This document shows, one piece after another, positions 10,630 to 51,723 of a stretch of DNA of 64,000 nt (position 1 is its first letter; each line of letters starts with the position of its first letter). The DNA is from Escherichia phage vB_Eco_NicPhage, in the sequence record OY726582; one strand, written 5' to 3'. The notes under the pieces are model-generated. The model did not search any database. It worked only from the letters and a program-made list of their open reading frames with translations, and was not told where the DNA came from. Position numbers and translations under genes: made by a program.

Positions 10630-11114
10630 ATATACGCTTTCCAAGTTCCTGTTTTAAATGTTGAGATTACGCGTTTCGCGCGATTAGGTGTCTGACGATA
10701 CCATTTAGATTGGGCTAGATTTACTGCCGCTTCATCCCAACGTTTCTGTTGAAGCATACGAAGAGAATTAGTAAAACCGGCGACGCCTGATACACCCATT
10801 TGGAAGACCATATTGACCAATGCACACCGACGAACCGCATCTAAAGAATCATATACCGGTTTAAGTTTAGCATTACCCAAGATTCCGCGAACGGCTTTAT
10901 CAACGTCTTCATTAAATAGCTTTTCAGCCTCATCAAGGGTAATTGTACCGTTGCATTTACGTCCGATCATTCTGTCAAGTTCAGCTTTAGCTACGGCTAA
11001 AGACGGGGTCTTTGTTACTAAATGGCCTATGCCAATAGTCCAAAAGCCTTCGGTGTCTTTGTATAAAGTCAGTCTAAGACCTTCGTCATTACGAAGCATT
11101 TCAAATATATTCAT
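10626..11114 (-). CDS. e: endolysin (T4-type lysozyme e)
   Basis: From [15 protein letters not shown]...TIGIGHL; catalytic E11/D20/T26 context conserved; SD GGGAGGT; track N-terminal extension rejected. Confidence 0.95.
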
Positions 11115-11146
11115 AATACCTCCCACGTTTATAGGAGGTATTTATT
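11115..11146 (-). promoter_or_regulatory. RBS-sequestering hairpin with embedded late-promoter-like box upstream of lysozyme e
   Basis: Minus strand TACCTCC-TATAAACGT-GGGAGGTA-ttATG: 7-bp stem pairs the SD; TATAAACG in the loop resembles late TATAAATA. Confidence 0.6.
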
Positions 11147-11148
11147 AC

Positions 11149-11607
11149 TTATAGGAGTGTAGTGAGCACCTTATATAATGATTTGCCCATTACATATTCC
11201 CATTGAGAAGGTTTAATTAAAGCGAATGCATCAAATTCAGGAATCTGTCGTCCGTCTGGGAATGTATGATAGGAATTACAAACACTGTTTCTGAATTGCT
11301 CGTGCTCTACAGGGATGGTATATAGGAACAGATGAATATTCTTATTGTCTGAGTAATGATGTTCACCTAGGTCTTTCAGGAAGGCAGGGTCATATTGTGT
11401 AAACCCAGTTTCTTCTTCGCATTCACGAATAGCGGCTTCAATAGGAGATTCACCCGGCTCGACACGTCCTTTAGGAATATCCCACCGATGAGCTAAAGAA
11501 CCTTTAGGACGAGAACCAGTTACACGCCCCATGAATAATTCTTTATCTTCGGTAAGGAAAATAATACCGGCTGATAGTTCTTTCACTTTATTTTTCTTAC
11601 TCATCAT
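11149..11607 (-). CDS. nudE: Nudix hydrolase
   Basis: 152 aa; Nudix box GRVEPGESPIEAAIRECEEETGF; adjacent to e as in T4 (e.1). Confidence 0.8.
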   Translation of the reverse strand: MMSKKNKVKELSAGIIFLTEDKELFMGRVTGSRPKGSLAHRWDIPKGRVEPGESPIEAAIRECEEETGFTQYDPAFLKDLGEHHYSDNKNIHLFLYTIPVEHEQFRNSVCNSYHTFPDGRQIPEFDAFALIKPSQWEYVMGKSLYKVLTTLL

Positions 11608-20043: not shown

Positions 20044-20120
<77 letters not shown>

Positions 20121-20123
20121 GAT

Positions 20124-20200
20124 TGGTGACCCAGACCAGATTCGAACTGGTAACCTTTCCCTTATGAGGGGACTGCTGCTAACCGTTGAGCTACAGGGCC
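20124..20200 (-). tRNA. tRNA with CAU anticodon (Ile2-type or Met)
   Basis: 77-nt cloverleaf: GGCCCTG acceptor, anticodon loop CUCAUAA, T-arm ACCAG-TTCGAAT-CTGGT, encoded CCA; 5' half resembles E. coli ileX as recalled. Confidence 0.75.
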
Positions 20201-21645: not shown

Positions 21646-21670
21646 TTTATTTCTCCATTTACTCATTTGA

Positions 21671-21712
21671 TTTGATAGGACTACTATAACATAGTCCTAT
21701 CATCATGTAAAC
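21671..21712 (-). promoter_or_regulatory. early promoter cassette
   Basis: GTTTAC ... dyad GATAGGACTACTATAACATAGTCCTATC upstream of 21460..21645. Confidence 0.55.
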
Positions 21713-21714
21713 TA

Positions 21715-21978
21715 TTAAATACCAGCTTCGCGTTTAACATAATCGACGTAAGCTTGGATAGCTTTCTTGCTGGTAATTTTTACCTGGCCTCGTCCGTTGC
21801 CTTCTTTAGAGTTTTTCTTAACAACTACATTACCATCTTTAACACCCCATACATGGACATAAGTACCGATGTTTCGGTCGTAGAACATTGCATGGTCGTT
21901 GTTGTAAGAGAATGATTCGTAGTTCTCTGACAGAGTAGAAGATTGAGATTCAGCGATAAATTCTTTATAGGTTTTCAT
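21715..21978 (-). CDS. internal protein (IP family, leader MKTYKEFIAE)
   Basis: 87 aa; IP leader; own promoter cassette upstream. Confidence 0.6.
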   Translation of the reverse strand: MKTYKEFIAESQSSTLSENYESFSYNNDHAMFYDRNIGTYVHVWGVKDGNVVVKKNSKEGNGRGQVKITSKKAIQAYVDYVKREAGI

Positions 21979-22001
21979 TTGTTTTTCCGTTTGGTTGTTG
22001 A

Positions 22002-22042
22002 TTTGATAGGACTACTATAACATAGTCCTATCAGCATGTAAA
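22002..22042 (-). promoter_or_regulatory. early promoter cassette upstream of IP gene
   Basis: Identical 28-bp dyad and GTTTAC as at 21671. Confidence 0.55.
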
Positions 22043-22046
22043 CTAC

Positions 22047-22334
22047 TTACAGAAGAGTTTTTGCAATAATTTTAAGCTGAGCTACAGAAATATGCTTAGC
22101 TTTAAACAGTGCGGTCTCTTCGGCCGGAGAGATAACAACAGTAGCGCCATCTTTCTTAGCAGACCATCCATCCCCTAAGTAAACAGTACCTTTTACTTCT
22201 TCACCATCAACCAGACTAATCATCGGTTTACCCTCACGTCCTTTATTTGCTTTAATAACTTCGGAAGTAAGGGTTGCTTCGGTCAGAGTAGAAACGTTAG
22301 CAACAGGTGATATAAATTCTTTATAGGTTTTCAT
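22047..22334 (-). CDS. internal protein, IPI-position (leader MKTYKEFI)
   Basis: 95 aa; IP leader; immediately upstream of 57B as ipI is in T4. Confidence 0.6.
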   Translation of the reverse strand: MKTYKEFISPVANVSTLTEATLTSEVIKANKGREGKPMISLVDGEEVKGTVYLGDGWSAKKDGATVVISPAEETALFKAKHISVAQLKIIAKTLL

Positions 22335-22357
22335 TTTATTTCCTTGAGGTCGTTTAT

Positions 22358-22400
22358 TTGATAGGATGATAGTAACACACCATCGTCCTTATGTAAACTG
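22358..22400 (-). promoter_or_regulatory. early promoter cassette upstream of ipI-like gene
   Basis: GTTTAC ... imperfect dyad AGGATGAT...ATCGTCCT. Confidence 0.5.
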
Positions 22401-22411
22401 TTTTGTGAAAA

Positions 22412-23097
<686 letters not shown>

Positions 23098-42506: not shown

Positions 42507-43142
42507 ATGGCAACATACTACAGATTGTATATTACAACATTTGAAACATCCACCGGTATAAAGATTTATGGTGGTAAACACAAATCAGTTTACGAAGACC
42601 CTTCAAAAGACCCTTATACTGGGTCTGGTACCTTTATACGAAGGGCCAAAAGAAAATACGGTCCGTCTTGTATAAAAGAAATTATATGGTCTAAGCCATT
42701 TGAATCTAAAGCTCTAATGGACGAAGCTGAAGAGTTACTGGTAGATGAATTATCCATTTTAGAAAATTGCGCAAATCTTGTTAAAGGTGGTGCAGGCGGA
42801 AGGTCGTATATTAACCCAGAAGATAATCCATCTATAGGACAAAAACGTTCAGCCCAATCTAAAAAGAAAATGTCTGACGCCGCAAAATCAAGAAAATGGA
42901 CTGAAGAAGGGTTAAGAAAACGTAAAGAATCTACAGCAAGAATGTGGAAAGATTTCAAACATAGACATCCTGATTTTTCTGGTTCAAAAAATCCGGCAGC
43001 TCGAAAAGTTAGTGTAAATGGTAAAATATTTAACACCTGCAAAGAATGTGGTGAAGAATTTAATATCACATCAAGCGCGGTTATAGGCCGATGCAAAAAC
43101 AACAAACCTAAATGGGCAGGATGGAATTATGTCGACGTATAA
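42507..43142 (+). CDS. GIY-YIG family homing endonuclease (Seg-like), inserted between genes 13 and 14
   Basis: 211 aa; N-terminal YRLYITTF...GIKIYGGKH resembles the GIY-YIG module; basic C-terminal region with CKECG; ATG 2 nt after gp13 stop; 3' end overlaps gp14 start. Confidence 0.65.
42507..43142 (+). mobile_element. freestanding homing endonuclease gene (HEG) insertion
   Basis: Extra ORF relative to T4, where 13 and 14 are adjacent; GIY-YIG-like N-terminus. Confidence 0.55.
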
Positions 43143-43893
43143 TTCAAATTTATTTGCAAAGTTAGAAAACCGAGAAGGCTATTCTAAAACTAATGAAACC
43201 GAGATTTTAAACAAATACGTGAACTTCAACAAATACGAAAATAGTCAAACCCTAGCTGATGTGTTAGTAGCAGAAAGCATACAGATGCGCGGTATTGAAT
43301 GTTTTTATGTTCCACGTGAATATGTTGCCGTGGACCTTATCTTTGGTGAGGACCTTAAAAATAAATTTACTAAAGCATGGAAATTTGCTGCATATCTGAA
43401 CTCTTTTGAAGGTTATGAAGGAGCGAAATCGTTCTTCAGCAACTTCGGAATGCAAGTTCAAGACGAAGTTACATTATCTATTAACCCAGGTCTTTTCAAA
43501 CACCAGGTCAACAATCAGGAGCCTAAGGAAGGTGATTTAATATACTTCCCAATGGACAACAGTTTGTTTGAGATTAACTGGGTTGAACCATATGACCCAT
43601 TCTATCAAGTAGGTAAAAATGCGATTCGTAAAATTACTGCAGGCAAGTTTATTTACTCTGGCGAAGAAATCAATCCGGTGCTTCAGAAAAATGAAGGTAT
43701 CAATATACCTGAATTTAGTGACTTGGAACTTAACCCTGTTAGAAATCTTGACGGTATCCATGACATTAATATCGATGAATATTCTGAAGTTGAGCAAATC
43801 AATTCAGAGGCAAGTGAATACGTTGAGCCGTATGTAGTAGTTAACAACCGTGGTAGACAAAATTCACCATTTGACGATGGGTTTATGAATTAA
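43129..43893 (+). CDS. 14: neck protein gp14
   Basis: 254 aa; synteny. Confidence 0.9.
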
Positions 43894-43942: not shown

Positions 43943-44894
43943 ATGATGTTTGGTTATTTTTACAACTCGTCGTTCAGGCGATATATCACAATGATGGGCG
44001 ATTTGTTTTCAAATATCCAAGTTAACCGTCAATTGTCTACAGGCAATAAATTAATTAGAGTTCCTATTACGTATGCATCTAAAGAGCACTTTATGATGAA
44101 ACTTAATAAATGGACCTCTATAAACTCACAAGAAGATGTGGCTAAAGTCGAAACTATTCTACCACGTATAAATCTCCAAATGGTGGATTTCGTTTATAAC
44201 CCAACGTTTAAAACGAATATATTGAATAACTCTCTTTTGAGTAAATCGACTAAGGATATTGTAGACCAATACAACCCATCACCAATTAAAATGATTTTTG
44301 AACTGAGCATCTTTACTCGTTATGAAGATGATATGTTCCAAATCGTTGAGCAAATTATTCCATATTTTCAGCCGCATTTTAATACGACTATGATTGAGCA
44401 ATATGGGCAGGATATTCCATTTGAAAGGGATATTAAAGTCGTATGGATGGCAGCAGCAATGGATGAACAAATAGACGGTGATAATTTATCTCGTCGACGT
44501 TTAGAGTGGTCATTAACATTTGAAGTAAATGGATGGATGTATCCTCCGGTAGGCGCAGCTGAAGGCCTTATTAAAACGACTTATCTTGATTTTCATGCTA
44601 AACGGTGATAATTTATCTCGTCGACGTTTAGAGTGGTCATTAACATTTGAAGTAAATGGATGGATGTATCCTCCGGTAGGCGCAGCTGAAGGCCTTATTA
44701 AAACGACTTATCTTGATTTTCATGCTAATGAACGAGACCTTCAAACAGCCGCCAGTGTTTTTGAATCAGTTGATACAGAAATTAAACCGAGAGACGTTGA
44801 AGCACAAGATTGGAATGGTGAAGTTGAACAAACTTATACTCATGATATTCCAATCCCGTCTCCACCAACCCCTCCTGGTCCTAGAAAACAATAA
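43943..44894 (+). pseudogene. 15: gene 15 (tail sheath stabiliser / tail terminator) split by a 127-bp tandem duplication; frames 43943..44608 and 44586..44894
   Basis: The peptide GDNLSRRRLEWSLTFEVNGWMYPPVGAAEGLIKTTYLDFHA occurs at the end of one track ORF and the start of the next in a different frame; removing one copy restores a single ORF of about 274 aa (T4 gp15 about 272 aa). Confidence 0.75.
44475..44728 (+). repeat. perfect tandem direct duplication, 2 x 127 bp, inside gene 15
   Basis: 44475..44601 is identical to 44602..44728 by direct reading; unit length is not a multiple of 3. Confidence 0.9.
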
Positions 44895-44903
44895 GAGGTA
44901 AAT

Positions 44904-47220
<2,317 letters not shown>

Positions 47221-51490: not shown

Positions 51491-51723
51491 TGGACGATTT
51501 AATTCAAGCTATTAAATCAAACGACCTCGTTGCTACTCGAAAGTTTTTTGAAAGTGCAATGGCAGAAAAAACGGTTCGTTTGATTGAAGCACGCAAAGCA
51601 GAAATCGCGTCTCAATTTTTGATTGAAGGCGAAGAACCTGAAGAAGAAGAAAAGAAAGCTTCGGAAGACGACGCTGATGAAGGCGATGACGACGAAGACG
51701 AAGATGATGAGGACGATGAATAA
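51490..51723 (+). CDS. 67: prohead core protein gp67
   Basis: 77 aa with poly-acidic C-terminus; synteny. Confidence 0.85.

Follow-up and report, generated by a model that had tools for sequence, protein, structure and literature searches.

The perfect 127-bp tandem duplication that splits gene 15 in the Escherichia phage vB_Eco_NicPhage sequence record (OY726582) is, with little room for doubt, an untrimmed contig-end overlap of the SPAdes assembler at k = 127, which was fused into the interior of the genome on manual rotation and is no feature of the phage. The analysis was conducted on a stretch of 64,000 nucleotides of this record (hereafter the window), and on the phage, protein, and sister-genome records described below.

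Direct comparison of the two copies within the window indicated that they matched base for base (Table 1), and Tandem Repeats Finder reported a period of 127, 2.0 copies, 100% matches, no indels, and a score of 508 for the same site. The identity of the two copies, which an earlier note on this DNA had claimed, was thus confirmed on re-inspection. The run of period-127 identity was exactly 254 bp long, with 0 bp of extra match at either edge, and examination of both edges revealed neither microhomology nor a short direct repeat at the endpoints of the duplication. Such microhomology is typical of a genuine tandem duplication, although it is not obligatory. The duplication was the sole sizeable tandem repeat in the 64-kb window. 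A perfect repeat of 127 bp cannot have arisen by chance.

Table 1 Features of the NicPhage window and of the sister records.
Feature	Record	Position	Strand	Remark
Copy 1 of the 127-bp unit	NicPhage window	44475..44601	+	Identical to copy 2; 3' end ...TTTTCATGCTAA
Copy 2 of the 127-bp unit	NicPhage window	44602..44728	+	Identical to copy 1; begins ACGGTGATAATTT...
Copy-copy junction (44601/44602)	NicPhage window	44590..44613	+	Reads ...TTTTCATGCTAA / ACGGTGATAATT...; artificial under the proposed origin
gp15 N-terminal fragment, 221 aa	NicPhage window	43943..44608	+	Ends ...LDFHAKR and stop; Pfam PF16724
gp15 C-terminal fragment, 99 aa, +1 frame	NicPhage window	44595..44894	+	CAJ1523360.1; ORF opens at 44586
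gp14 neck protein, intact upstream neighbour	NicPhage window	43129..43893	+	Belongs to a cluster called neck protein / head closure Hc2
gp16 small terminase subunit, intact downstream neighbour	NicPhage window	44904..45398	+	Own Shine-Dalgarno sequence (AAGAGGT)
tRNA genes Arg(TCT) and Met(CAT), adjacent	NicPhage window	20044..20200	-	Only tRNA genes of the window; n = 2, equal to the published count for NP
repeat_regions	Solly, OY720021.1	1..127 and 166538..166664		Identical; annotated in the record
Perfect tandem duplication, period 127	Geo, OZ034685.1	45616..45869		Sole one of its genome (167.5 kb)
Perfect 117-bp in-frame tandem duplication	EL, OZ034682.1	29056..29291		Inside the DNA polymerase gene
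Record ends	BGP, OZ035849.1	first 59 bp and last 59 bp		Identical to each other

Since 127 is not divisible by 3, the duplication shifts the reading frame of gp15, which was consequently deposited as two CDSs. The ORF of the N-terminal fragment and that of the C-terminal fragment (44586..44894) overlapped by 23 nt (44586..44608), the second being in the +1 frame, and the 41-residue peptide GDNLS...LDFHA was present in the translations of both. These observations agree with the earlier note, in which the same peptide was said to be encoded twice in different frames and gp15 to be split by a frameshift with a stop after 221 aa. The note had further described the second ORF as having neither a start codon nor a ribosome binding site; the latter part held, as no Shine-Dalgarno sequence was found upstream of its possible starts, whereas the former did not, because the ORF contains a TTG at 44586 and an ATG at 44595. 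In the protein database, CAJ1523359.1 was an exact match to a 220-aa N-terminal fragment begun at the second ATG (43946), and CAJ1523360.1 was an exact match to the 99-aa fragment begun at ATG 44595; both are named Phage tail completion protein (T4-like gp15) and assigned to Escherichia phage vB_Eco_NicPhage. The residues MLN that open CAJ1523360.1 are an out-of-frame reading of the end of copy 1 and the junction. The deposited record OY726582.1 therefore holds the same duplication.

When one copy was removed, a single ORF of 274 aa (273 aa from the second ATG) was obtained, which aligned with residues 1-271 of T4 gp15 (E = 4e-146); the earlier note had expected an ORF of about this length, similar to T4 gp15. 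The restored gp15 showed 99-100% identity over its full length to the intact 273/274-aa gp15 of many Mosigviruses, and in all of the relatives gp15 was a single uninterrupted protein of 273/274 aa. In Pfam, the N-terminal fragment matched profile positions 1-209 of the 245 positions of PF16724 (T4-gp15_tss) with E = 2e-86, and the C-terminal fragment matched positions 167-242 of 245. Judged from the sequence, the two matches are one PF16724 domain, the middle of which is counted twice. The gene also keeps its expected place, with gp14 (neck) on one side and gp16/gp17 (terminase) on the other. The full-length match and the gp14-gp16 position liken the restored protein to the tail terminator and sheath stabiliser gp15 of T4 (PF16724; PDB 4HUD and 3J2M), from which it would differ in no biological respect, the split being found only in the deposited sequence. 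On these alignments, the true gp15 of NicPhage is almost certainly the standard 274-aa tail terminator, intact and ordinary.

The duplicated site was compared with other phage records, a check that the earlier note had proposed for related T-even genomes. With the 127-bp unit alone as the query, 510 phage records were matched at 510 places, and every one of them (510/510) carried a single copy. Matches to 1051 bp of sequence around the site were found in 651 phage records; in the best 40 of these 651, the match extended over 924 bp (1051 less 127) and was broken into two pieces, which corresponds to one copy. The extra copy was absent from all 120 records that were at least 99% identical. A 120-bp query centred on the junction matched 409 phage records, in every case split into two pieces that spanned approximately 127 bp, i.e. 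a single copy, and never as one piece in the phage collection. Likewise, a search of IMG/VR with the 44-nt junction gave 0 exact matches, and no contig encoding the 221-aa fragment was on record. The exact restored gp15, in its 273-aa and 274-aa forms with S264, was not found in a collection of 15 billion proteins. A Logan metagenome contig from SRR27027714, which was reached via an exact match to the fibritin protein, proved to belong to a different phage that is 99.3% identical to the window; its gp15 was single-copy and 273 aa long, and it had no GIY-YIG insert.

With default settings and reads of 250 bp, the largest k-mer used by SPAdes is 127, and the genomes of T4-like phages are circularly permuted. 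The former value is empirically supported by the 127-bp end repeats in the record of Solly, a sister phage of the same study. According to the paper describing the phage (PMC13390438), in which it is called NP (OY726582.1; 170,265 bp, 2 tRNAs, 38% GC), paired-end reads of 250 bp were obtained for the genome at MicrobesNG and assembled by SPAdes v3.7 with default settings, and subsequently the "genomes were rearranged using SnapGene". The GC content of the window was likewise 38%. The length of the repeat, whose period is exactly 127, equals the largest k of this assembler route, with k taken from the defaults and not from a list printed in the paper. A 127-bp overlap artefact of SPAdes has been described (PMC5923482), and in the announcement of phage U136B, terminal repeats of 127 bp were cut off prior to re-opening of the genome (PMC8104045). 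The repeat in NicPhage resembles such an end overlap in being exactly 127 bp long, in its perfect identity, and in a position that is arbitrary with respect to genes. It differs in that a SPAdes end overlap usually lies at the ends of the record, as in Solly, whereas the copies in NicPhage and in the sister phage Geo are internal after rotation. The terminal form is the normal one; an internal overlap, as in NicPhage, mimics a mutation and breaks a gene. Taken together, the following marks of a k-mer end overlap were observed here: the length, the 100% identity, the rotation after assembly, the signature in sister genomes, and the absence from relatives.

If the repeat in NicPhage is such an artefact, 127-bp leftovers are expected in other genomes that went through the same route, and they were seen in Geo and Solly. 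The scan of sister records covered Solly, Geo, EL, and BGP, with NR1 (LR990704.1) and SAP (OZ034687.1) left outside it. In Solly, the end repeats split rIIA into two partial CDSs across the record ends, and the CheckV call of this genome as complete, which refers to a direct terminal repeat, is probably due to these 127-bp repeats. In Geo, the duplication was located between the small ORF GEO_090 and GEO_091, the gene for glutaredoxin, at a locus with no relation to gene 15, and EL, a relative of Geo, had one copy at the corresponding locus. The records of EL and Geo both open at rIIA. The duplication in Geo is the same artefact as the repeat in gene 15 of NicPhage. As exactly 127 bp occurs three times independently (NP, Geo, and Solly), a biological coincidence cannot be the explanation.

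The other two sister records showed leftovers of different lengths. The duplication in EL extends the DNA polymerase to 937 aa, compared with 898 aa in T4, and was absent from slur03/08/14, Geo, and BGP despite 100% identical flanks; likewise, it probably is an artefact of a junction, although 117 is no default k. In BGP, a pseudogene CDS marked as "manually edited" was joined across the record start. The length of 59 bp is a default k of MEGAHIT and not of SPAdes, whereas BGP is placed in the SPAdes route by its authors (PMC13390438). The 117-bp and 59-bp cases are probably of the same kind as the 127-bp ones, and they may result from partial trimming of the ends or from another assembler. 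The pipeline is thus imperfectly uniform, as the internal 117 bp of EL and the terminal 59 bp of BGP indicate. Apart from these repeats, the "Putative anti sigma factor" of Geo (10641..11388) carried two overlapping CDS annotations (GEO_018 and GEO_019), whereas EL has one CDS of 747 bp; this split may reflect a 1-bp indel or a sequencing error.

On the basis of these results, the duplication can be explained by the following sequence of events. Reads from the circularly permuted genome would have given a de Bruijn graph with a circular path, and SPAdes would have written this circle as a linear contig whose first 127 nt equal its last 127 nt. The arbitrary break of the NicPhage contig would have been placed within gene 15, so that the original contig would start with ACGGTGATAATTTATCTCG... 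and finish with ...CTTGATTTTCATGCTAA (or the reverse complement); copy 1 would then represent the last 127 nt and copy 2 the first 127 nt of that contig. On manual rotation to the gene order of a relative, the contig would have been cut at the conventional start and its old ends abutted with the overlap left untrimmed, giving the two adjoining copies of Table 1, after which the gene caller would have divided gp15 into two CDSs. The circular graph path and the output of a 127-nt end overlap are established behaviour of the assembler, and the rotation is documented. That the old contig ends lie exactly at 44601 and 44602 we infer from the signature of the repeat together with the sister genomes. 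The corrected genome is almost certainly 170,138 bp long, which requires the deletion of 127 bp and the merging of the two CDSs.

The earlier note had offered three readings of the repeat: an assembly artefact, a real duplication, and a frameshift-dependent gene. Only the first was sustained by the evidence, and the other two are effectively excluded; the link to k = 127 was absent from the note.

A genuine tandem duplication, either fixed in the phage stock or carried by some genomes of a mixed population and captured by the assembler, would have originated from illegitimate recombination or replication slippage within gene 15. T4-type phages do produce tandem duplications, the duplication is present in the deposited sequence, and its head-to-tail arrangement with a shifted frame resembles the spontaneous duplications and frameshifts of T-even phages. 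There is no reason, however, why real duplications of this kind should match an assembler parameter in length, as the NicPhage repeat does; they are mostly formed at short direct repeats, of which the NicPhage repeat has none; and they would not recur at equal length in unrelated loci of other isolates, as the 127 bp does in Geo and, at the record ends, in Solly. The absence of the extra copy from all of the 510 matching records also speaks against this origin. Moreover, a perfect 127-bp repeat in a recombination-proficient T-even phage would presumably be under strong counter-selection and be quickly lost, and a de Bruijn assembler working at k = 127 should not be able to return exactly two copies without reads that span them. 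A genuine duplication of either form is accordingly very unlikely.

The function of gp15 bears on the same question. In a 2026 in situ structure, residues 209-272 of T4 gp15 form the sheath-binding C-terminal domain. Translation of gene 15 in its deposited form ends at a position equivalent to residue ~219, whereby almost the whole of this domain would be lost. NP nevertheless forms plaques and shows rigid normal tails and full heads in electron microscopy (PMC13390438). A genuine truncation is incompatible with this phenotype, since a phage deprived of the sheath-binding domain of an essential protein would then have to be viable and have normal tails. The idea that the C-terminus of gp15 is dispensable and tolerates a real truncation was rejected, because residues 209-272 bind the sheath and the PF16724 match runs to position 242 of 245. 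It is scarcely credible that some or all of the NicPhage stock carries a real duplication, in which case its agreement with k = 127 would be a coincidence. If it were true, a T-even population would tolerate, or keep regenerating and resolving, a frameshifting duplication in an essential tail terminator, and functional gp15 would be supplied by revertant genomes in mixed infection.

An artefact of another origin, i.e. a cut-and-paste error in SnapGene unrelated to any overlap or a mis-join of two contigs, deserves even less credence. The manual rearrangement is documented (PMC13390438), and the lengths other than 127 in EL (117 bp) and BGP (59 bp) would fit such an error, but the exact 127 bp in NP, in Geo, and at the ends of Solly points to a k-mer overlap, and a random paste error would not give the same length three times. 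Finally, the probability of recoding, whereby the C-terminal domain would be provided, fused or as a polypeptide of its own, by a +1 ribosomal frameshift within the 23-nt ORF overlap or by re-initiation at ATG 44595, is negligible: the +1 overlap and a rare CGG codon directly before the TGA stop are compatible with it, but the overlap sequence owes its existence to the duplication and has no conserved counterpart in other genomes, the ATG lacks a Shine-Dalgarno sequence, a frameshifted product would hold an internal 42-aa repeat in a conserved fold, and the relatives all encode one uninterrupted protein of 273/274 aa. Programmed frameshifting and re-initiation were rejected on these grounds, i.e. 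no Shine-Dalgarno sequence, no conserved shift site, and a site made by the duplication.

With a k-mer end overlap as its very probable source, the duplication has no bearing on the biology of the phage and matters as a data-quality flag. In OY726582.1, 127 spurious bases split an essential gene into CAJ1523359.1 and CAJ1523360.1, which protein databases now list as gp15 "fragments", and at least four sister records (Geo, EL, Solly, and BGP) contain related leftovers. A cheap and specific flag for this error is a perfect tandem duplication inside a record that is as long as one of the common assembler k values (55, 77, 99, or 127 for SPAdes; 141 for MEGAHIT). Artefacts of this kind can imitate frameshifts, pseudogenes, and "novel" duplications in genome scans.

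The window covers the structural-gene region of a T4-like phage (Mosigvirus) and includes baseplate genes, gp12, fibritin, gp13, a GIY-YIG-type ORF, each of gp14 to gp20, and head genes. With the exception of gp15, every structural gene in the window was intact. The GIY-YIG-type ORF (211 aa; 42507..43142, + strand) is located between gp13 and gp14 and overlaps the start of gp14 by 14 nt. It showed a weak match to the I-TevI DNA-binding domain, which at 22.6 bits was below the cutoff of 27, and identical or near-identical ORFs were found in some Mosigviruses only (F2, RPN187, mogra, and moskry). In the relative represented by the Logan contig, which is 99.3% identical and has no such insert, gp13 directly adjoins gp14. 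The ORF looks like an insertion of a free-standing homing endonuclease (seg-like).

Two further repeats were observed in the window. An imperfect 21-bp repeat (GACGACGATGACGAAGACGAT) of 2.5 copies at 51667..51719 codes for an Asp/Glu-rich run, at what is, judged by position, the end of the gene for the small prohead core protein (gp67). In addition, a 48-nt element occurred three times in 21667..22417, with spacings of 331 and 355 bp; two of the copies were 98% identical and the third 67%. Every copy holds a hairpin (GATAGGACTACTAT...ATAGTCCTATC), and conserved flanking motifs of 27-30 nt are located between the small ORFs downstream of the tRNA genes. The arrangement is suggestive of the regulatory cassettes that are repeated between the early genes in T4-type phages.
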